Shown here: piece by piece, positions 23,760-41,150 of the stretch
Numbering within the stretch: the first letter of the stretch is position 1
How the letters are laid out: each line of letters opens with the position of its first letter
Source of the DNA: a virus
Taxonomy: Duplodnaviria; Heunggongvirae; Uroviricota; Caudoviricetes
IMG/VR virus record: IMGVR_UViG_3300042923_000186
Location: 1 to 64,000 of that record
Direction: 5' to 3' (one strand)
Length of the DNA stretch: 64,000 nt
The notes under the pieces: model-generated
Database searches by the model: none
What the model saw: the letters and a program-made list of their open reading frames with translations, nothing else
What the model was told of the DNA's origin: nothing
Program-made: the position numbers and the translations under genes

Positions 23760-24362
23760 ATGAAAACAAAAGAAAGTTTGGACTGGCACGAGATGTTTTA
23801 CTACGATGCTGAGTCTCCTAGTGGCCTAAGGAGGAAGACGGACTGGAGGACTGGAAAGGACTACCAGATACTCAGGGCTAAGGCTGGAAGCCCAGTAGGT
23901 AGCATAGCTGGCATCGGTTACTACGTTACATACGTGGATGGCCGACTGTTCTACTGTCACAGGATTGTCATGGAGTTGCACGGTGAAGACATTAAGGACA
24001 TGTCTGTAGACCACGTAGATGGCAACTCGCTCAACAACAAGTATGAGAACCTGAGAGCGGTTCGGCACAACGTAAATCACAGGAACAGAAAGAAGCCTAC
24101 TACAAACAAATCAGGGGTGGTAGGCGTGTCACTGAATACCGAGATGATAGGCGGGAAGGAGAAGCGGAGATGGGTTGCAGGGTGGCGGGATATGGAAGGG
24201 AAGTCCCGTTACAAGTATTTTTCTGTGACAAAGCTAGGGGAAGAAGGGGCGTTCAAGGCGGCTTGTGAGCACAGGTCGGACGTTATTAACAAGCTAAACG
24301 CTGAAGGTGCGGGCTACACACAAAGACATGGAGGTGCAGATGAGGGCAGTATGGGACATTGA
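23760..24362 (+). CDS. HNH homing endonuclease with C-terminal AP2 domain
   Basis: VDHVDGNSLNNKYENLR HNH core. AP2-like SGVVGVS...WVAGWRD. Confidence 0.65.
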   Translation: MKTKESLDWHEMFYYDAESPSGLRRKTDWRTGKDYQILRAKAGSPVGSIAGIGYYVTYVDGRLFYCHRIVMELHGEDIKDMSVDHVDGNSLNNKYENLRAVRHNVNHRNRKKPTTNKSGVVGVSLNTEMIGGKEKRRWVAGWRDMEGKSRYKYFSVTKLGEEGAFKAACEHRSDVINKLNAEGAGYTQRHGGADEGSMGH

Positions 24363-33445: not shown

Positions 33446-33559
33446 ATGAACAAACTTGAAATGATTGCCAGCCTGACAGGGCCGGAGCGCATTGGCGTAT
33501 TTGCGTTCGTCATCGTGGGACTGATCGTTGTATGGTACTTGGGGGAGCACAAGAAATGA
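33446..33559 (+). CDS. small membrane protein (37 aa)
   Basis: Strong RBS taaggaggctgtaa; stop overlaps the downstream start. Confidence 0.3.
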   Translation: MNKLEMIASLTGPERIGVFAFVIVGLIVVWYLGEHKK

Positions 33560-34038
33560 AGCTCATCATCGCTGGAAGTCGCTCCATCAAGAGCTACAGC
33601 ACCGTCCGTGCAGCTATCCTAGAATCGGGCCTCTGGGAGCGCCATAAACGGGCCATAGAGGTTGTCTCGGGCAAGGCTAAGGGGGTAGATACCCTTGGAG
33701 AGATTTTCGCCTCTAAGGCCGATTTAAAGCTTCACGAGAAGCCTGCCGACTGGGACGACATCGACGTGCCGGGCGCTGTCATCCGTTACAACTGGGAAGG
33801 CAAGCCTTACAACGCTCTGGCCGGTCACTGGCGAAACGAAGAGATGGCCCAGTTCGCTGATGAAGCCCTCATCGTATGGGATGGCAAGTCCACAGGCAGC
33901 TTGGACATGCTTCATCGGATGATTGCACTGGAGAAGCCTGTCTACCTCTTCCCTCTCCGTATCGGAACGGACACACTGGACGGACTGGAGAACAAGGGCG
34001 TGCAAATTATTTTTCCCAATAGCTTGACAAGTAGCTAG
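33556..34038 (+). CDS. SLOG/DprA-like Rossmann-fold protein (DUF2493-like)
   Basis: Trimmed to MKLIIAGSRS. The GSR motif is typical of the DprA/YpsA/SLOG clade. Confidence 0.4.
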   Translation: MKLIIAGSRSIKSYSTVRAAILESGLWERHKRAIEVVSGKAKGVDTLGEIFASKADLKLHEKPADWDDIDVPGAVIRYNWEGKPYNALAGHWRNEEMAQFADEALIVWDGKSTGSLDMLHRMIALEKPVYLFPLRIGTDTLDGLENKGVQIIFPNSLTSS

Positions 34039-34466: not shown

Positions 34467-34895
34467 ATGGAAGACACTAAACTGATCATCAGTAATCTGG
34501 AGACTCTGCTGGAAGCAGTCAAGGCATTCCCGGAATCCAACCTTGACCTAGGCCAGTACAAACATTACAGAGAGGACTGCGGCACGCTGTTTTGCACAGC
34601 GGGCTTGGCCGCTAGCATGCACGAATTCAACGCACAAGGTGTAACGTTCAGTGGAGATTTCGTCAGGGTCAACGGTGAGTGGCCGGATGAAACCAGCGAC
34701 ACGAACGACATCTTCGGACATGGTGCGTGGAAGGTGTTGTTTGCACCTCACGGGTGTGGGTCAGCGGACAAGGAGCTAGGAGCCGTTGAGGTGATGTATA
34801 AAAGCTCGACAAAGGCAATGTCCGATAAGGCTCTGGCTATCGCCCGTCTGGAATACCAACTGGACATCTACAAGGAGAAAAACAATGGCAACTAA
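34467..34895 (+). CDS. hypothetical protein, paralog family member 2 (DCGTLFCTAGL motif)
   Basis: RBS accaaggagatacaaa before the ATG. Confidence 0.5.
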   Translation: MEDTKLIISNLETLLEAVKAFPESNLDLGQYKHYREDCGTLFCTAGLAASMHEFNAQGVTFSGDFVRVNGEWPDETSDTNDIFGHGAWKVLFAPHGCGSADKELGAVEVMYKSSTKAMSDKALAIARLEYQLDIYKEKNNGN

Positions 34896-35283
34896 AAAAC
34901 AAATCATCAAGAACCTGAACGTGCTACTGGAAGCCGTCGAAGCTCAGAAGGAACTCAATCTGGATTCGTACTGCACGGAAGAGCATGGCTGCGGTACGCT
35001 GTTCTGCAACGCTGGGCTGGCTACTACCCTTCCGCATTTCAAACGTCGTGGCTGGAAGTTTGACCGCTACGGTGATGTCGCGGTGAAAGGAGAGAGTGTC
35101 TGGAGCGGCGGGGATAAGGATTTCGGTCCTGACGCGTTTGAACGACTGTTCGAAAAATTCGGTGAGGGCGAATATGACCACATGTACCCTCGCCGAAAGC
35201 ACGGTGAACCAGACTGCTCTCACAAGAAGCTCGCTGTGTGGCGTCTGAAGCTGGCTATCGCAATGCTGGAGGTGCCAGCGTGA
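34885..35283 (+). CDS. hypothetical protein, paralog family member 3 (GCGTLFCNAGL motif)
   Basis: N-terminus IKNLNVLLEAVEA parallels ISNLETLLEAVKA of member 2. Confidence 0.5.
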   Translation: MATKKQIIKNLNVLLEAVEAQKELNLDSYCTEEHGCGTLFCNAGLATTLPHFKRRGWKFDRYGDVAVKGESVWSGGDKDFGPDAFERLFEKFGEGEYDHMYPRRKHGEPDCSHKKLAVWRLKLAIAMLEVPA

Positions 35284-36116
35284 GCCTCTACCTGTCCGTG
35301 GGCCGGAAGCCCGTACCACTGGTGTTCAGCACCTTCCCTGCCGGGGAAACTTGCATTCGCCTTCAGGAGCCTGTTCAATACCATTCCGACAAGGTGGATG
35401 CAGAAATCTACTACGAGTTCGATGGCAACGGATCGTTGTTCGATCTGGCCCTGCTGGTGGATGCCATCCGTCGTGAGTACTCCAATGGTGCGACGATCCA
35501 CCTCACCATGCCATACCTGCCGTATGCTCGTCAGGACCGCGTGTGCAACCGTGGCGAGAGCCTGTCGGTAGCAGTGGTAGCTAGGTTCCTCAACGACCTG
35601 AAGTTCGCCAGCGTCACTTGCTACGACATCCACTCGGAAGTCGGCGTAGCGTTGCTGGACAACCTGCACCATATCAAGCAAGCTAACGCTGCCTACCTGC
35701 TGCCGGTCCACTGTGATCCAGCTATGACAGTGTTGGTTAGCCCGGATGCCGGAGCAGAGAAGAAAGTGTTTGACGTAGCTAAGCAGCTTGGTTATAATTC
35801 AGTCATCCGAGCTAGCAAGGTACGTAACGTAGCTACTGGCAAGATCGAGAAAACTACGCTGATGGACCCTGTACATGCTGGCTACTACGACTTCCTCATC
35901 GTAGACGACATCTGTGACGGTGGCCGAACGTTCATCGAGCTTGCCAAAGTACTTAAGGCGGAAGACACTACCGGCCTCCGTAAGATTGGCCTGTACGTTA
36001 CGCACGGCATCTTCTCGGCTGGCATGGAAGTGTTCAGCGGCTTCATTGACAAGATTTACGTCAAGAACCTGATGAATGTGAAAGTTAAGGATCATCCACT
36101 AATTCAAATTGTGTAA
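35280..36116 (+). CDS. ribose-phosphate pyrophosphokinase (PRPP synthetase)-like enzyme; candidate ADPR-PP synthetase
   Basis: GTG start overlapping the upstream stop (GTGA). LFDLALLVDAIRR and DDICDGGRT PRPP-binding motifs. Confidence 0.7.
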   Translation: MSLYLSVGRKPVPLVFSTFPAGETCIRLQEPVQYHSDKVDAEIYYEFDGNGSLFDLALLVDAIRREYSNGATIHLTMPYLPYARQDRVCNRGESLSVAVVARFLNDLKFASVTCYDIHSEVGVALLDNLHHIKQANAAYLLPVHCDPAMTVLVSPDAGAEKKVFDVAKQLGYNSVIRASKVRNVATGKIEKTTLMDPVHAGYYDFLIVDDICDGGRTFIELAKVLKAEDTTGLRKIGLYVTHGIFSAGMEVFSGFIDKIYVKNLMNVKVKDHPLIQIV

Positions 36117-36127
36117 GGAGAAAGAAA

Positions 36128-36352
36128 ATGGCAATTACGAAGGAAATTAACGGGAAGAAAATTACGTTTGACTTATCTGAATGGGGGGATGGCATTGCTG
36201 TTATTGCCACCAATATCAACGGTGAACGTGAGTATGGTGGGCACCTAATCCATATCCAAAAGGACGGTACGTATAGCCGGGTGGAGGGTGTCAACGGGGA
36301 GTTCGGTTTCAGTACCAACGCCAAAGGCCAGATCAAGCAAAATAAACAGTAA
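36128..36352 (+). CDS. hypothetical protein
   Basis: RBS aaggagaaagaaa before the ATG. Confidence 0.45.
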   Translation: MAITKEINGKKITFDLSEWGDGIAVIATNINGEREYGGHLIHIQKDGTYSRVEGVNGEFGFSTNAKGQIKQNKQ

Positions 36353-36362
36353 AGGAGAAAAC

Positions 36363-36722
36363 ATGAAAAAGATCATCGCAATTATCGCCATCGCCCTGTC
36401 TCTCGCTGCCTGCGGTCAACAGCAGGCTCCCCTGCCCTCCTACGACGGCGTACAAGGTGCTCCGGCCCCTGTCGCACAGCATGACGGCTTCGACACGGGC
36501 GATGCTGCTGTAGGCGCTCTGGCGGGTGCTGCTGCGGGTTATATGATGGGCAAGGGCTCGTCCAACAACCGGACCATCGTTGTTGACAATCGTCGCCCAA
36601 CCAACTACGGCTACAACGACTACCGCCGCAGCCGGAACACCGTCACCACTACCACGGTTACGAAGCGTAGCGCATTCGGCGGTAGCAAAACCGTAACCCG
36701 TACCACACGGAGCCGCCGTTAA
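36363..36722 (+). CDS. lipoprotein with glycine-zipper and basic C-terminus
   Basis: Trimmed to ATG after RBS aaggagaaaac; lipobox LAAC. Confidence 0.5.
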   Translation: MKKIIAIIAIALSLAACGQQQAPLPSYDGVQGAPAPVAQHDGFDTGDAAVGALAGAAAGYMMGKGSSNNRTIVVDNRRPTNYGYNDYRRSRNTVTTTTVTKRSAFGGSKTVTRTTRSRR

Positions 36723-36724
36723 TC

Positions 36725-37255
36725 ATGCTCTCTGACTACCTCACGTATGACGAGACTAGCCCTACTTGTCTACGTTGGAAGGTAGCTAGGAAGGGCGGTG
36801 GTAAAGGTAGCTCCAAGAAACCCGGGGATGTTGCGGGAGTGTTTTCTGGAAGGTATGCGCAGTTCTGGCTAGACGGAGTTAAGTGGTATGTCCACCGGGC
36901 CGTCTGGGAGCTTCACAACGGTGATGCCGGAGAGGACGATGTTGATCACAAGGATACCGATCCAACTAATAACAAGATCGGGAATTTGCGACTCGTACCT
37001 CACGCTATTAATCAGCGTAACTGCAAGAGAGGCAAGAACAACACATCGGGCATAAACGGAGTAAGCTACGATAAATCTAAGGATCGATGGGTAGCCAAAT
37101 GGAGGGACTTAGCAGGGGCCGATAAGAGTAAGAGCTACACAGTCCGTAAGTACGGCGAAGCTGCAAAAGGTATGGCTATACAGGCCAGACAAGCTGCGAT
37201 AGACGAATTAAACAGGTCCGGGGCTGGGTACACAGATAGTCACGGAAAACACTAA
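36725..37255 (+). CDS. HNH homing endonuclease with C-terminal AP2 domain (paralog of 23760)
   Basis: VDHKDTDPTNN HNH core. AP2-like SGINGVS...WVAKWRD. Confidence 0.65.
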   Translation: MLSDYLTYDETSPTCLRWKVARKGGGKGSSKKPGDVAGVFSGRYAQFWLDGVKWYVHRAVWELHNGDAGEDDVDHKDTDPTNNKIGNLRLVPHAINQRNCKRGKNNTSGINGVSYDKSKDRWVAKWRDLAGADKSKSYTVRKYGEAAKGMAIQARQAAIDELNRSGAGYTDSHGKH

Positions 37256-37267
37256 GGAGAAAATTAA

Positions 37268-38902
37268 ATGCAAAACAAACCTCACTTAGCTTTAGATGGT
37301 TATAAAGCTAGTCATAAATTCCAGTACCCGGAAGGTACGCAGTACGTCTACTCGAACCTGACGGCCCGCTCCGCTGGTCACGCCAAAGTGTCCCGCTTCT
37401 TCGACAACAAGGCTGTCTTCGTGGGCCTGCAAGGCTTCATTCAGGAATTCCTGATCGAAGACTGGAACGCTGGCTTCTTCAAACGTCCGAAGGATGAAGT
37501 GGTGGCCGAATACAAACGCCGCATGGACACGTACCTCGGCCCTGACAGCGTGCCTGTAGATCACATCGCTGACCTGCATGACCTCGGCTACCTGCCGCTG
37601 GAAATCAAGGCGCTGCCTGAAGGCTCCCGCGTGGACATCCGTGTACCGTTCCTGACGATCATCAACACTGATCCTCGGTTCTTCTGGCTGACCAACTACA
37701 TCGAGACGATTCTGTCGGCAGAACTGTGGCAGCCAATCACGAACGCCACGGTAGCCTACGAGTTCCGCCGCCTGCTGAACCACTACGTGGAACTGACTGG
37801 CTCGGACAAGGACTTCGCTGACTGGCAACTGCACGACTTCTCCATGCGTGGCATGCCCGGCCTGCACGCTGCCGCTCGCTCCGGTATGGCTCACTTGATG
37901 GTGGCCGGTCACGGCACGGACACGTTGCCTGCAATCGACTACATCGAAGAGTACTACTTCGCTGATGCGACGAAGGAACTGATCGGCGGCAGCGTCCCTG
38001 CGACGGAACACAGCGTCATGTGCATGGGCGGTAAAGATGATGGCGAACTGGCTACGTTCAAGCGTCTGATCACGGAAACCTACCCCTCCGGTATCGTGTC
38101 CATCGTATCGGATACGTGGGACTTCTGGAACGTCATCACGAACACTGCCCTGCTGCTGAAGGATGACATTCTGGCTCGCAAAGAGAACGCACTGGGCCAA
38201 GCCAAAGTGGTGTTCCGTCCTGACTCGGGCGATCCTGTGAAGATCGTTGCTGGCCTTCGTGTTCTGGAAGTAGGCCCGCGACTTCCTGACGGAATGTCTG
38301 GTTACGATGCTGAAGATAAGTATGACGTTGTTAATTACGAAGGTAGGTACTATGAATTCAAAGGTGACAATACGGATGTCTTGACGCTCACACGAGAAGT
38401 TCCCGCACACGTCGTAGCCGGTGCTGTCGAATGCCTGTGGAACATCTTCGGTGGCACGATCACCGGAGCGCCATCTGGCAAGGGCTACAAGACCCTGAAC
38501 CAACGTGTCGGCCTGATCTACGGCGACAGCATTACGCTGGAACGCATGGAAGAAATCCTGAAGCGGCTTGCTGCTAAAGGCTTCAGTGCTGGCAACGTGG
38601 TGTTCGGTATCGGTTCGTACGCTTACCAGTACAACACCCGCGATACGCTGGGTATGGCTGTCAAGGCAACCTACGGCGTCGTCAACGGTGAAGGCCGGGA
38701 ACTGTTCAAAGACCCAGTGACGGACAGCGGCACTAAGAAGTCTGCTAAAGGCTTGCTGCGTGTGGAACAGATGGGCGACCGCTTTGCCCTGTACGACGGT
38801 GTTAACTGGTATCTGGAAGGCGGAGAACTGTGTCGCGTGTTCCGTAACGGCTTAGCTTTCAACCTGCAATCCTACGCTGAAATCGTGGCGAGGCTGAAGT
38901 GA
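37268..38902 (+). CDS. nicotinamide phosphoribosyltransferase (NAMPT/NadV)-like enzyme
   Basis: N-terminus LALDGYKASHKFQYPEGTQYVYSNLTARS resembles the NAMPT hallmark. Length 544 aa. RBS aaggagaaaattaa. Confidence 0.75.
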   Translation: MQNKPHLALDGYKASHKFQYPEGTQYVYSNLTARSAGHAKVSRFFDNKAVFVGLQGFIQEFLIEDWNAGFFKRPKDEVVAEYKRRMDTYLGPDSVPVDHIADLHDLGYLPLEIKALPEGSRVDIRVPFLTIINTDPRFFWLTNYIETILSAELWQPITNATVAYEFRRLLNHYVELTGSDKDFADWQLHDFSMRGMPGLHAAARSGMAHLMVAGHGTDTLPAIDYIEEYYFADATKELIGGSVPATEHSVMCMGGKDDGELATFKRLITETYPSGIVSIVSDTWDFWNVITNTALLLKDDILARKENALGQAKVVFRPDSGDPVKIVAGLRVLEVGPRLPDGMSGYDAEDKYDVVNYEGRYYEFKGDNTDVLTLTREVPAHVVAGAVECLWNIFGGTITGAPSGKGYKTLNQRVGLIYGDSITLERMEEILKRLAAKGFSAGNVVFGIGSYAYQYNTRDTLGMAVKATYGVVNGEGRELFKDPVTDSGTKKSAKGLLRVEQMGDRFALYDGVNWYLEGGELCRVFRNGLAFNLQSYAEIVARLK

Positions 38903-39108
38903 AGCTGTGCACAGACTGTAAGCACTTCCGTAACAGCATTGCTGGTGCAGAGTTTGGGAAGTGTGCAGCCTTCCGCTCTAACGTAGATGGAACTCCGGCG
39001 TACTATTGCTACGAGGCACGTTCGAGTAGGTGTGGAGATAGTGCTGTAAGGTTCGAGCCTAAGCCGCCGTCACTGCTTGCTAGGCTGGTAGATAAAATCT
39101 GTAAATAA
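38899..39108 (+). CDS. small Cys-rich hypothetical protein (zinc-ribbon-like CTDC...CYE...C)
   Basis: Overlaps the upstream stop. Confidence 0.45.
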   Translation: MKLCTDCKHFRNSIAGAEFGKCAAFRSNVDGTPAYYCYEARSSRCGDSAVRFEPKPPSLLARLVDKICK

Positions 39109-39112
39109 ACGC

Positions 39113-39141
39113 TTGACCCCGCTAGGTAGTTATGTAATAAT
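39113..39141 (+). promoter_or_regulatory. sigma70-like promoter P12 (TTGACC-17-AATAAT)
   Basis: Spacer ccgctaggtagttatgt. Confidence 0.4.
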
Positions 39142-39173: not shown

Positions 39174-40517
39174 ATGAAGAACTATATCGGCTTTGCTAAC
39201 GATCACTCGTCCTCGATGTCCGGCCTTCGCACTACGGCTATTGAGGACTACAACACTAACGTTAAAGCCGTAACCGGCGCTGCATCGGCTAATATGCTGG
39301 ATACCATTGTATCCATGACACGGTTTGCCACGTCTGTCGAGCGTGTCATTGTCAACTCCAATCCTCACGTACTGAAGCCGTTAGCTCAGTGGCCTGCCTC
39401 TGGCATGACCTCACTTTATGACGGGATTGGTGATCTGATCGAACAATTTGAAAACGTACCTGACGCAGCGAATACAAACGTGTCATTCCTAATTATGGCG
39501 ACTACGGACGGTGGTGAAAATTGCTCTGTCCGCTACTCGGCTAGCACGCTTGCTGCGAAAATTCGTAAGCTGCAACAGACTGACCGTTGGACGTTTGTTC
39601 TGCGAGTACCGAAAGGCCACAAAGATTCCTCCGCTATCGGTAACTTGGGAATCCCTCCCGGTAATATCATCGAATGGGAAACGTCTTCTTCCGGCATGGA
39701 AAAGGCCACCGCTGCAACCACCGCTGCCGTGAACCAGTTCTACGCTTCTCGTGCATCCGGTCAGAAGTCATCCACCGTGTTCTACGCTCAAGCTACGGCT
39801 GTCGATACTTCGGCTCTGGTGGACATCACCAAGGACGTTTCGCTGTACGTCGTTCCGGCAGAAGATAGCGGCATCGAAATCCGCGACTTCATCCTGCGTC
39901 ACCGCATGGAATACCTGAAAGGTTCGGCGTTCTACCAACTGACGAAGACGGAAGCCCGAGTGCAGCCTGAGAAGATCATCGCTGTCCGTGACCGTACGAC
40001 TGGCAAGATTTACGCTGGCAAGGAAGCTCGCCAAATGCTGGGCCTGCCAACTGACAAGAACGTGCGTCTGCACCCCGGCGACCACGGCAACTTCGACCTG
40101 TTCATTCAGTCGTCGTCCGTGAATCGTAAGCTGGTGGGCGGTACTGGTGTCGTCTACTGGAAGGCAATCGGCAAGCCGTTCACTGAAGCTGATCTGGCAT
40201 ACCTGCAACCTAAGCCAGTAGCTCCGGCTGTCGTGCAACTGCCTGCTGTGACGCCAACTAGCAAGCCTACGCCTAGCCCGCTGAAGCCTACGCCGAAGAC
40301 GCCTGCCGGTACGTTCACTATGTCCGCTACGGCTCCTGCTGCTCCGGTAGCAATCGTTCCTAACGATGGTGGCCGTGTACGTTACCACATGCCGACTGCG
40401 AAGGCTCGATTCTTTGCTACCCGTGACGGTGCTCGTGCTCTCGCTGCCCTGTCCGGTGGCAAGCAATACGACGCTGGCCCAACGGCAGCTAAAGGTAAGC
40501 GCTTCTTCGTAGAATAA
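39174..40517 (+). CDS. von Willebrand factor A (vWA) domain protein
   Basis: MIDAS-like NDHSSSM (DxSxS), T..YDG and ATTDGGEN. Pro/Thr-rich linker and C-terminal domain of unknown function. Confidence 0.5.
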   Translation: MKNYIGFANDHSSSMSGLRTTAIEDYNTNVKAVTGAASANMLDTIVSMTRFATSVERVIVNSNPHVLKPLAQWPASGMTSLYDGIGDLIEQFENVPDAANTNVSFLIMATTDGGENCSVRYSASTLAAKIRKLQQTDRWTFVLRVPKGHKDSSAIGNLGIPPGNIIEWETSSSGMEKATAATTAAVNQFYASRASGQKSSTVFYAQATAVDTSALVDITKDVSLYVVPAEDSGIEIRDFILRHRMEYLKGSAFYQLTKTEARVQPEKIIAVRDRTTGKIYAGKEARQMLGLPTDKNVRLHPGDHGNFDLFIQSSSVNRKLVGGTGVVYWKAIGKPFTEADLAYLQPKPVAPAVVQLPAVTPTSKPTPSPLKPTPKTPAGTFTMSATAPAAPVAIVPNDGGRVRYHMPTAKARFFATRDGARALAALSGGKQYDAGPTAAKGKRFFVE

Positions 40518-40576: not shown

Positions 40577-40696
40577 ATGGCTAAGAAATGTACATGCAAA
40601 TGCAGCCACTGCGTAGCGATGGGTAACATTAAACGAAGCGTAGCGAACACACCAAAGAAACAAGTTAAGGAGAAGACTAATGGCACTGGCAACTGA
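40577..40696 (+). CDS. small Cys-rich protein (39 aa, CTCKCSHC)
   Basis: Not in the ORF track; strong RBS acaaggaggatac; overlaps the next gene by 17 nt. Confidence 0.3.
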   Translation: MAKKCTCKCSHCVAMGNIKRSVANTPKKQVKEKTNGTGN

Positions 40697-41150
40697 AGTA
40701 GGCGACGTATTTAACGCACTAGTAGCAAGCAAGCAACGTCCGATGTTCGTACATGGCTGCAATGCTTCCGGTGGCTTTGGTAGCGGCGTAGCTGGCATCG
40801 TAAAGAAGCTCTACCCTCTGGCTGAGCTAGCTTACAAGCAAGCCTACCGTCGTGGTGGCCTGAAGCTCGGAGATGTCATCGTGTATGACGACATTCTCGG
40901 TAAGGAGCCTATCATCTGCAACGCGATCACTCAGCAATACTACGGACGTGATGGCAAGCTCTACGTAGACTACGATGCGGTTGTCGTAGCGATGCAGGCG
41001 GTAGCTACGCTAGCTAAAAAGAAGGGCATGCATGTGCATCTGCCGATGATCGGCGGTGGCCTTGGTGGTGGCGACATCAAACGACTGACGGCCATTTTCG
41101 AAGCGTGTTTCTGGGACGTAGAGGCCACGCTGTGGTTGAAGGAGGATTGA
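40680..41150 (+). CDS. macro domain protein (ADP-ribose binding/processing)
   Basis: HGCNASGGFGSGVAGIV and LPMIGGGLGGGD resemble the macro-domain glycine-rich phosphate-binding loops. Confidence 0.45.
   Translation: MALATEVGDVFNALVASKQRPMFVHGCNASGGFGSGVAGIVKKLYPLAELAYKQAYRRGGLKLGDVIVYDDILGKEPIICNAITQQYYGRDGKLYVDYDAVVVAMQAVATLAKKKGMHVHLPMIGGGLGGGDIKRLTAIFEACFWDVEATLWLKED

Follow-up and report, generated by a model that had tools for sequence, protein, structure and literature searches.

A probable NARP1-type NAD+ reconstitution locus with an interrupted gene order in an uncultivated ~89-kb phage

Does a phage that carries a Prs-like gene and a NAMPT-like gene salvage nicotinamide through nicotinamide mononucleotide (NMN), or does it rebuild nicotinamide adenine dinucleotide (NAD+) directly from ADP-ribose (ADPR)? 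The question is raised by such a gene pair in a 64,000-nt stretch of DNA (hereafter the window, in whose coordinates positions are given) from the virus record IMGVR_UViG_3300042923_000186. A first-pass annotation of the window favoured NARP1, the two-enzyme route from ADPR through ADPR pyrophosphate (ADPR-PP) to NAD+, over classical salvage by Prs, NadV and an NMN adenylyltransferase (NMNAT). Our analysis comes down on the same side, on the strength of the clade and SCH motif of the NAMPT-like protein, the PP loop and truncation of the Prs-like protein, the linkage of the two genes in related loci and the lack of an NMNAT in the sequence examined. We put the probability that the locus is a functional NARP1, consisting of Adps and Namat and serving phage counter-defence, at roughly 0.87.

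The genome of the window phage measures 88.9 kb. A JGI contig of 88,929 bp encodes a protein with 100% identity to one from the window. Two Logan contigs (run SRR35179801), 100% identical to the window where they overlap it, add 4.3 kb upstream and 7.3 kb downstream, bringing the sequence examined to 75.6 of the 88.9 kb (85%). Exact-sequence queries with Namat, the 376-aa end ORF and a 514-aa ORF gave no match, and a search for related loci with the first window gene gave none either. For comparison we used 80 viral contigs encoding relatives of the window Namat, and seven relatives from the phage's own lineage (L005, L006, L007, L014 and L111-L113).

The layout is as originally described. A Prs-family and a 544-aa NAMPT-family open reading frame (ORF) lie on the + strand with a gap of 1,151 bp (previously given as about 1.1 kb), two small ORFs (74 and 119 aa) and an HNH_3-AP2 endonuclease ORF lie between them (Table 1), and the two peptides that had been quoted, LFDLALLVDAIRR and DDICDGGRT, both occur in the Prs-like product. 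The Prs-like protein matches phrog_619 (E=1e-78), and the NAMPT-like protein matches NCBIfam PRK09198 (E=1e-160) and phrog_448 (E=9e-187); judged by these profiles, both family assignments are far beyond chance and unambiguous. Namat shares its strand with Adps and comes four genes after it, which falls within the published NARP1 rule, by which a Namat homologue lies no more than 10 genes from Adps (Osterman et al. 2024, 10.1101/2024.02.11.579819).

Clade and motifs of the Namat and Adps proteins

Phage NAMPT homologues form two clades, the Adps-linked Namats and the NMNAT-linked Nampts of NARP2, such as that of KVP40 (10.1101/2024.02.11.579819). The top matches of the window protein in the PDB are the SPbetaL1 Namat structures 9W5X and 9W5W (E=6e-151, 507 bits), against ~215 bits for human and rodent NAMPT and 192 for the Xcc (Xanthomonas) Nampt. 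Its identities across a phage collection are bimodal, at 47-49% to the validated Namats of FADO and SPbetaL1 and 27-30% to the KVP40-like or T4-like Nampts of R11Z, KP27, DLP_6 and BcepSaruman. Namat profiles built without the window's own 19-member clade scored it at 692.8 bits (all distant Namats) and 630.7 bits (SPbetaL1, FADO and the three Adps-linked homologues of ICP1, JLBYU28 and JoeDirt), whereas a NARP2 Nampt profile gave 249.2. Likewise, a bootstrapped neighbour-joining tree groups the protein with the metagenomic L005-L007 (99%), within the Adps-linked group and apart from the NARP2 outgroup (100%), at distances of 0.70-0.75 to the validated Namats versus 1.4-1.5 to NARP2 Nampts. 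The comparison of this gene with NAMPT and Namat that the first-pass annotation had suggested thus comes out for Namat, and these scores and distances support placing the product in the Adps-associated clade and not in the Nmnat-associated Nampt clade.

The signature residues agree with this placement. In the SPbetaL1 structures an adenine "selectivity clamp" is made up of the SCH helix and the variable SCL loop; SCH has the motif GSX-phi-X-phi-X-phi-TRD, in which the X residues are aromatic, and the third stacking residue, in SCL, is typically R, K or Y (Lan et al., PMC12774641). The window SCH, GSYAYQYNTRD, has Y at positions 3, 5 and 7 and fits the motif. We aligned 93 homologues, 89 Adps-linked and 4 from NARP2. 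GS[YF], and with it the aromatic residue at position 3, occurs in 89/89 Adps-linked proteins, and the aromatic at position 7 in 74/89; the NARP2 proteins read GGGLLQ..RD (GGALLQ in BcepSaruman) and human NAMPT GGGLLQKLTRD. The catalytic residues equivalent to SPbetaL1 D13, Y15, F189, R192, D215, R306 and D308 are kept in the window, and the autophosphorylated His is present in 93/93. The 544-aa length is due to an extra insertion of ~42 residues at a length-variable hotspot: 60 residues lie between the equivalents of SPbetaL1 316 and 332 (median 18, maximum 96), compared with 93 in a Felixounavirus protein that closely approximates the validated Namat of Bas63. The PDB entries 9KE8/9KEO, annotated "nicotinamide phosphoribosyltransferase", score 399 bits to the window Namat, between Namat and NAMPT, and in their SCH equivalent, GAQTYQRNTRD, Q and R replace the aromatics at positions 3 and 7.

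For the Prs-like protein the reference is the ICP1 Adps structure (Liu et al., PMC13586617), with an acceptor groove formed by R87, H121, D161, D212 and D213 and a catalytic Lys185 on a beta-hairpin. The family is further marked by a remodelled PP loop, DD[IL]CD[GA]GxTF, a remodelled RF loop and loss of the alpha11-alpha12 module, and its F221, a Leu in E. coli Prs, caps the ATP adenine (PMC13586617). The window protein retains the equivalents of ICP1 F18, R87, H121, D161, K185, D212 and D213. Its PP loop reads DDICDGGRTF, compared with DDICDGAASF in ICP1 and DDMIDTGGTL in E. coli Prs; among Namat-linked homologues C215 occurs in 72/85, G217 in 52/85 and F221 in 85/85, the E. coli enzyme having I, T and L. 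Helices alpha11-alpha12 are absent, leaving an 11-aa tail after ICP1 residue 268 versus 40 aa in E. coli Prs.

Scores point the same way, a single E. coli sequence standing for canonical Prs in these comparisons. Identity is 38.6% (135 bits) to ICP1 Adps versus 26.5% (63 bits) to E. coli Prs, and an Adps profile hidden Markov model built without the window's clade gives 243.5 bits for the window protein and 133.3 for E. coli Prs. NCBIfam TIGR01251 reaches 111.1 bits, under its cut-off of 113, and the Prs equivalog models reach 43-93 bits against cut-offs of 296-536. The Pfam N-terminal and Pribosyl_synth domains score 39 and 20 bits, a weak pattern shared with ICP1 and SPbetaL1 Adps, unlike E. 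coli Prs (179.5 and 110). In short, the protein does not fit a canonical class I Prs, which would pass the curated models and keep the R5P-phosphate loop DTxGT, the basic RF loop and the C-terminal alpha11-alpha12. The proposed profile comparison therefore favours Adps, and the outcome that would have spoken for ordinary salvage, a substrate pocket matching canonical Prs, was not what we saw: PP loop, C-terminus and model scores are those of Adps. Together the results support assigning the product to the Adps clade. The ORF is open from a GTG at 35238. We prefer the GTG at 35280, since a GGAGG Shine-Dalgarno (SD) sequence (35268-35272) precedes it with a 7-nt spacer and its GTGA overlaps the stop of the upstream gene; the resulting 278 aa are typical for the family.

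Linkage of the pair and the search for an NMNAT

An Adps homologue stands beside the Namat homologue in 79 of the 80 related viral loci, and the exception ends at a contig edge. The earlier statement that the window encodes no recognisable NMNAT is borne out by Pfam: among 66 further window ORFs, for which the family lists were complete, none had a CTP_transf_like, NUDIX, NadR-kinase or PnuC match, nor any RyR match that would indicate RyDEP/RyR-domain partners; the positive controls, NARP2 NMNAT-Nudix proteins (DLP_6, BcepSaruman; L087, L088), were readily detected. Used as phmmer queries, two NARP2 NMNATs matched none of the six-frame ORFs. Neither NMNAT, Nudix, NadR nor PnuC was found in the 11.6 kb of additional sequence from the same genome or in ~10 kb past the window end in a close relative. 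The genome-wide check that had been called for thus yields none in the 75.6 kb. Clade membership, signature motifs, gene linkage and the absence of an NMNAT from the sequence examined can all be read directly from the DNA. The locus is accordingly distinct from NARP2 (KVP40-clade Nampt plus NMNAT), having the wrong clade and SCH motif for it and no NMNAT in the sequence examined. Nor is it NARP3, a PnuC-like transporter with a NadR-like bifunctional enzyme (PMC13464706), since the window ORFs give no PnuC- or NadR-type Pfam match.

One apparent NMNAT was rejected. The closest annotated Namat homologue (59% identity) lies on L002 (CAKLQF020000015.1, "Acinetobacter phage MD-2021a" in INPHARED), beside a gene labelled "bifunctional NMNAT/ADPR pyrophosphatase". 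The latter proved to be NrtR, with a NUDIX domain and an NrtR winged helix and no cytidylyltransferase domain; NrtR is an ADPR-responsive regulator. When its sequence was used as a query, phages returned mostly Nudix proteins, and a homologue was found in 0/80 related loci. With an iron ABC transporter, an AraC regulator and efflux genes, L002 has the look of Acinetobacter chromosome. The PP loop of the L002 Prs-like protein (DDICDGGATF) and the SCH of its NadV (GSFTYNYLTRD) carry the Adps and Namat motifs, so that prs-nadV represents a bacterial NARP1-like pair of the kind reported by Lan et al. This prs-nadV-nrtR operon resembles the window pair in those motifs and differs in being chromosomal and followed by the NrtR-type Nudix-family regulator, with no phage context, HNH or Macro gene. 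We flag the NMNAT label as a misannotation.

Modelled on its homologues, the pathway would run as follows. A bacterial SIR2-, TIR- or SEFIR-type defence would cleave NAD+ to ADPR and nicotinamide. Adps (35280-36116) would then pyrophosphorylate the terminal ribose of ADPR (ADPR + ATP -> ADPR-PP + AMP), and Namat (37268-38902) would combine ADPR-PP with nicotinamide to give NAD+ and pyrophosphate, with neither an NMN intermediate nor an NMNAT. A Macro-domain protein (40680-41150), probably an Adpp, would convert the ADPR-1''-phosphate produced by aRES-type RES defences to ADPR and feed it into the same pathway.

The interrupted junction and the neighbouring genes

Strong SD sequences precede p74, the lipoprotein-like ORF and Namat, and no + strand terminator was found between 32.5 and 42.5 kb. 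Given a co-directional block without a terminator, in which the genes have their own ribosome-binding sites, the three ORFs between Adps and Namat look like passengers that leave the pathway undisrupted, and it is unlikely that they disable it. A promoter scan gave 6 sites versus 6.1 expected in shuffled sequence, i.e. no excess. A promoter-like site, TTGACC-17-AATAAT preceded by a TG, occupies 39113-39141, immediately ahead of p447.

Table 1. Features of the NAD+ locus and its neighbours in window coordinates.
Feature	Length (aa)	Position	Strand	Basis or remarks
SLOG/YspA-like (DprA-like) protein		33532..34038	+	PF10686 30.5 bits, phrog_289
Adps (ADP-ribose pyrophosphate synthetase; Prs family)	278	35280..36116	+	phrog_619, Adps profile, motifs
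Small ORF p74	74	36128..36352	+	own SD TAAGGAGAAAGAAAATG, G+C 0.458, no family match
Lipoprotein-like ORF	119	36363..36722	+	signal peptide, lipobox LSLAAC (MKKIIAIIAIALSLAAC), glycine zipper, basic C-terminal tail
HNH_3-AP2 homing-type endonuclease		36725..37255	+	PF13392 E=2e-13, PF00847 E=3e-10, phrog_99 E=2e-40
Namat (nicotinamide ADP-ribose transferase; NAMPT family)	544	37268..38902	+	PDB, profiles, tree, SCH motif
Doubtful Cys-rich ORF p69	69	38899..39108	+	overlaps Namat stop; not called on identical Logan contig L108
vWA-domain protein p447	447	39174..40517	+	phrog_26613 (unknown function), AlphaFold2 + Foldseek
Macro-domain protein, Adpp-like (putative ADPR-1''-phosphate phosphatase)	156	40680..41150	+	PF01661, phrog_335, Adpp profile

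The first-pass annotation took the endonuclease as a recent insertion into a formerly contiguous two-gene cassette. One half of this view stands. The HNH and lipoprotein-like genes are absent from the Adps|Namat slot in 7/7 lineage relatives, homologues of the former occupy other sites, and the G+C content of the latter is 0.603 (0.50 for HNH, ~0.53-0.55 for the flanking genes), all of which marks the two as lineage-specific insertions. The HNH_3-AP2 homologues lie between p447 and Macro in L005, on both sides of p447 in L007 (two copies) and upstream in L006; L112 has an HNH_3 gene after p447, and the window itself carries a second copy, 40% identical, at 23760-24362 in the nucleotide-metabolism block. 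The other half does not hold as worded, for small variable ORFs occupy the slot in 6/7 relatives and nothing dates the insertion. The slot is empty in L014; it contains a homologue of p74 in L006 (45% identical, the only one found in this position), an unrelated ~70-aa ORF in L005, a small membrane ORF in L007 and one or two small ORFs in L111-L113, and it holds one small ORF in PaP1, a published NARP1-AP phage. Since it is rarely empty in the lineage, the junction is a hotspot where small accessory genes settle; only at deeper ancestry does "formerly contiguous" apply. The lipoprotein-like ORF, with weak Gly-zipper and LptM lipobox Pfam matches and no homologues in any fetched locus, may be a moron, e.g. 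a superinfection-exclusion lipoprotein.

The Macro gene, which had escaped mention in the first-pass annotation, lies downstream. According to a 2026 preprint by Osterman et al. (10.64898/2026.01.28.702374), a Macro protein resembling Poa1p, named Adpp, is encoded in 15% of NARP1 operons; it converts ADPR-1''-phosphate, the product of aRES defence, to ADPR and so extends the pathway to NARP1-AP. The window protein matches PF01661 at 24.8 bits (cut-off 22), phrog_335 ("phosphatase") at E=1e-30, yeast Poa1p (6LFU/6LFQ) at E=4e-5 in the PDB and the validated Adpp of Vibrio phage Gary at E=2e-6 (26% identity). On a profile of 11 published NARP1-associated Adpp proteins (Table S1) the full-length protein scores 88.2 bits and retains each invariant column. 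In L008/L009 a homologue (36% identical) separates Adps from Namat, homologues adjoin NARP1 in five further loci (L016, L026, L054, L055, L057), and the position after Namat is kept in L005-L007 and L113 and probably in L111 (a 157-aa ORF with no Pfam record). Because of the match to the Adpp profile the locus resembles the extended pathway, and the Macro protein rather probably supplies the Adpp step against aRES-type depletion.

Between Namat and Macro lies p447, which follows Namat directly in 7/7 lineage genomes examined. L048, L052 and L070 have more weakly similar homologues at 3-5 kb from Namat. It gave no match in Pfam or in a PDB sequence search. Its AlphaFold2 model (pLDDT 85.5) has an integrin I/vWA fold in the N-terminal ~195 aa (Foldseek E~1e-7, target TM 0.63-0.67), with MIDAS residues D10, S12, S14, T111 and D112 invariant and further domains at the C-terminus. 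For the doubtful p69 we found no family match and no homologues in relatives. Upstream, the SLOG protein gave no PDB sequence match; in both L005 and L006 a homologue, 54-66% identical, precedes Adps. Nucleotide signals are the ligands of SLOG domains, one of which is present in the Thoeris effector ThsA, making a signal-binding role conceivable. A general link between SLOG and NARP found no support: the "DprA-like" genes of PaP1 (NARP1-AP) and KP27 (near the NARP2 Nampt) have no BLAST similarity to it, and a homologue occurs in only 3/80 loci.

Other accessory genes were observed in or near the module. NADAR-domain genes (PF08719, linked to NAD/ADP-ribose metabolism) lie inside the Adps-Namat-p447 module of L111 (1290-1754) and L112 (6125-6544), and none was found in the window. 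Two adjacent paralogous ORFs of 142 and 132 aa (34467-35283), sharing the motif CGTLFC.AGLA and having homologues in L006, stand directly upstream of Adps. One of the scanned ORFs, which may or may not belong to this pair, matched DUF6197, and L111 has a DUF6197 gene upstream of Adps. It is conceivable, and in our view quite doubtful, that NARP1 is here part of a larger, so far undescribed NAD/ADPR counter-defence module, with vWA p447, SLOG and the relatives' NADAR as extra working components; these could, e.g., capture other NAD-derived products or immune signals, or convert them into ADPR.

Besides the NAD genes, the window contains two other blocks. One lies on the + strand and serves replication and nucleotide metabolism, with family A DNA polymerase, helicases, primase, DNA and RNA ligases, ThyX, ribonucleotide reductase and glutaredoxin. 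The other is structural and runs convergently on the - strand, with large terminase, Mu-type portal, S49 protease, decoration protein, E-type capsid, tail genes, tape measure and lysozyme. Capsid identity is 51% to Limnohabitans phage DC31, 49% to Curvibacter phage P26059A and ~45% to Pseudomonas Pakpunavirus/KPP10-like myoviruses. When the region was compared with INPHARED phages by megablast, fragments of 36-69 bp were all that matched, with no close relative; the phage belongs to an uncultivated lineage of ~90-kb phages with no cultured phage close to it. The last window ORF (376 aa) is a 497-aa large terminase cut short by the window end. The 7.3 kb beyond the window end (L109 1-7276) hold 7 tRNA genes (Thr, Glu, Val, Ala, Arg, Ser, Ile), an ANT-domain protein and a serine recombinase, which hint at a temperate or integrative lifestyle. 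Another lineage relative, L102 (IMGVR_UViG_3300038443_000233, 91.9 kb; 69% identity on a terminase fragment), is not among the top Namat matches; it may have no NARP1, in which case the module would be accessory.

Alternative readings and comparison with known systems

A number of observations weigh against a functional NARP1. The enzymatic activities and the anti-defence phenotype would carry over from homologues at 26-49% identity. Namat enzymes also form NMN from PRPP (phosphoribosyl pyrophosphate) in vitro (10.1101/2024.02.11.579819; PMC12774641), so some classical activity may persist here. The phi-1 residue of the window SCH is Ala, unique among the 89 clade members (T 68, S 20, A 1). 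The SCL, TARSAGHAKVS, has Gly then His at the position of SPbetaL1 R40, where 75/89 clade members have K or R. Gly-His also occurs in the closest relatives, and the loop exceeds that of Nampts in length, a trait of Namats generally; in the sequence no residue stands out as the stacking one, and Gly-His could mean an altered donor specificity in this Namat subclade. In Adps, the adenine contact F92 of ICP1 is Cys, in a variable column (C 28/85, M 25/85). The NMNAT search covers about 85% of the genome. As for the extension to NARP1-AP, its operational rule asks for a Macro gene (PF01661, PF14519 or PF20016) no more than two genes away from the NARP1 genes. With the 447-aa vWA gene between, the window Macro ranks second after Namat when p69, itself doubtful, and a 39-aa ORF are left uncounted, and third when they are counted, which puts it at or just outside that limit. 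Poa1p-like macro proteins are moreover very common in phages (2,132 records).

Could the pair then serve classical salvage, the Prs-like enzyme boosting PRPP, the NAMPT-like enzyme making NMN and the host NadR/NadD/PncC route or an unseen phage NMNAT finishing NAD+? The Pfam and NCBIfam labels (Prs and NAPRTase/NAMPT family) suggest as much, and the NMN formed by Namat homologues, the SCL without its usual residue and the unseen 15% of the genome add to the case. We nevertheless consider it very unlikely, since Namat lies in the Adps-linked clade, far from the PRPP-preferring KVP40-type Nampts, with its aromatic SCH clamp intact; the Prs-like protein carries an Adps PP loop, is without the C-terminal and regulatory elements of Prs and stays below the curated cut-offs for Prs; and no NMNAT was found in the 75.6 kb examined, the apparent one beside the closest annotated homologue being NrtR. 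Osterman et al., furthermore, found no phage with both pathways, and the NARP1 of Bas63 works without host pncC/nadR. That mobile insertions have uncoupled or silenced Adps and Namat, leaving a decaying pathway, could be argued from the three foreign-looking ORFs (G+C 0.46, 0.60 and 0.50) that part them by 1.15 kb. This is hardly credible when both ORFs are full length with all catalytic and signature residues intact, when strong SD sequences serve each gene with no + strand terminator found, and when interrupted layouts are normal in functional relatives and in PaP1. Within a functional NARP1, the Macro protein might still stand outside the pathway as a general phage macrodomain that, e.g., removes the ADP-ribose marks of DarT-like or other ADP-ribosylating defences. 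Its separation from Namat by the 1.3-kb vWA gene, the spread of its phrog_335 family over >2,000 phage records, of which many seem to have no connection with NARP1, a sole and weak NCBIfam match to the DarG macro domain (27 bits) and its low identity to Gary Adpp would all agree with this, as would the NADAR genes of L111 and L112, NADAR proteins acting as ADP-ribosyl hydrolases. We regard this as possible though somewhat unlikely in view of the full-length profile match with its invariant residues, the presence of Poa1p among its few PDB relatives and its recurrence inside, beside or after NARP1 pairs in relatives.

Compared with the NARP1 of SPbetaL1 and FADO (Bacillus), Bas63 (E. coli) and ICP1 (Vibrio), the window has the same two enzyme families in the same order and strand, the Namat SCH motif and catalytic residues (47-49% identity to SPbetaL1 and FADO), and an Adps (39% to ICP1) whose DDICDG core is identical to that of ICP1 and which, like it, keeps the catalytic Lys and has lost the Prs C-terminal module; as in those phages, no NMNAT was found. 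It differs in the three ORFs between the genes, the longer SCL with Gly-His for R/K/Y, the phi-1 Ala, the Namat insertion and the F92-to-Cys change, and in host and phage lineage, its capsid being nearest to Limnohabitans/Curvibacter phages and Pakpunavirus. With the NARP1-AP of Vibrio phage Gary and of Pakpunavirus PaP1 and JG004 (10.64898/2026.01.28.702374) it shares a Poa1p-like Macro protein encoded with the NARP1 genes, and PaP1 has single small ORFs in both the Adps|Namat and Namat|Macro gaps. In contrast to the Adps-Adpp-Namat order of Gary, the window Macro lies downstream of Namat beyond the vWA gene and the doubtful p69, and it is only 26% identical to Gary's, the one biochemically tested Adpp. 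NARP2 (KVP40-type Nampt and the NMNAT/Nudix protein NatV) has in common with it the NAMPT-family fold and a catalytic core for nicotinamide attachment, and departs from it in sequence (27-30% identity), in a GGGLLQ..RD motif without the aromatic clamp and in genomes that encode NMNAT-Nudix where the window has Adps.

NARP1 is already known: it was described in 2024, occurs in ~4% of sequenced phages and has structures for both enzymes, and NARP1-AP was described in 2026. The locus is a clear but ordinary example in an uncultivated lineage and adds little new biology, its minor peculiarities being the interrupted gene order, the SCL variant and the linked vWA gene. It does show that the published rules (Namat SCH, Adps PP loop, C-terminal truncation) cleanly classify a divergent environmental phage, and that the R/K/Y rule for SCL is not universal, given the Gly-His of the window Namat. 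Moreover, Adps and Namat need not adjoin, and their junction hosts small morons and homing endonucleases, so that searches based on adjacency miss cases. NARP1 serves phages as a general countermeasure to immune systems that deplete NAD+ (Thoeris I, DSR1/2, SIR2-HerA, SEFIR and Kongming), and recognising it predicts which defences a phage can evade, with use in phage-host prediction and therapy design.

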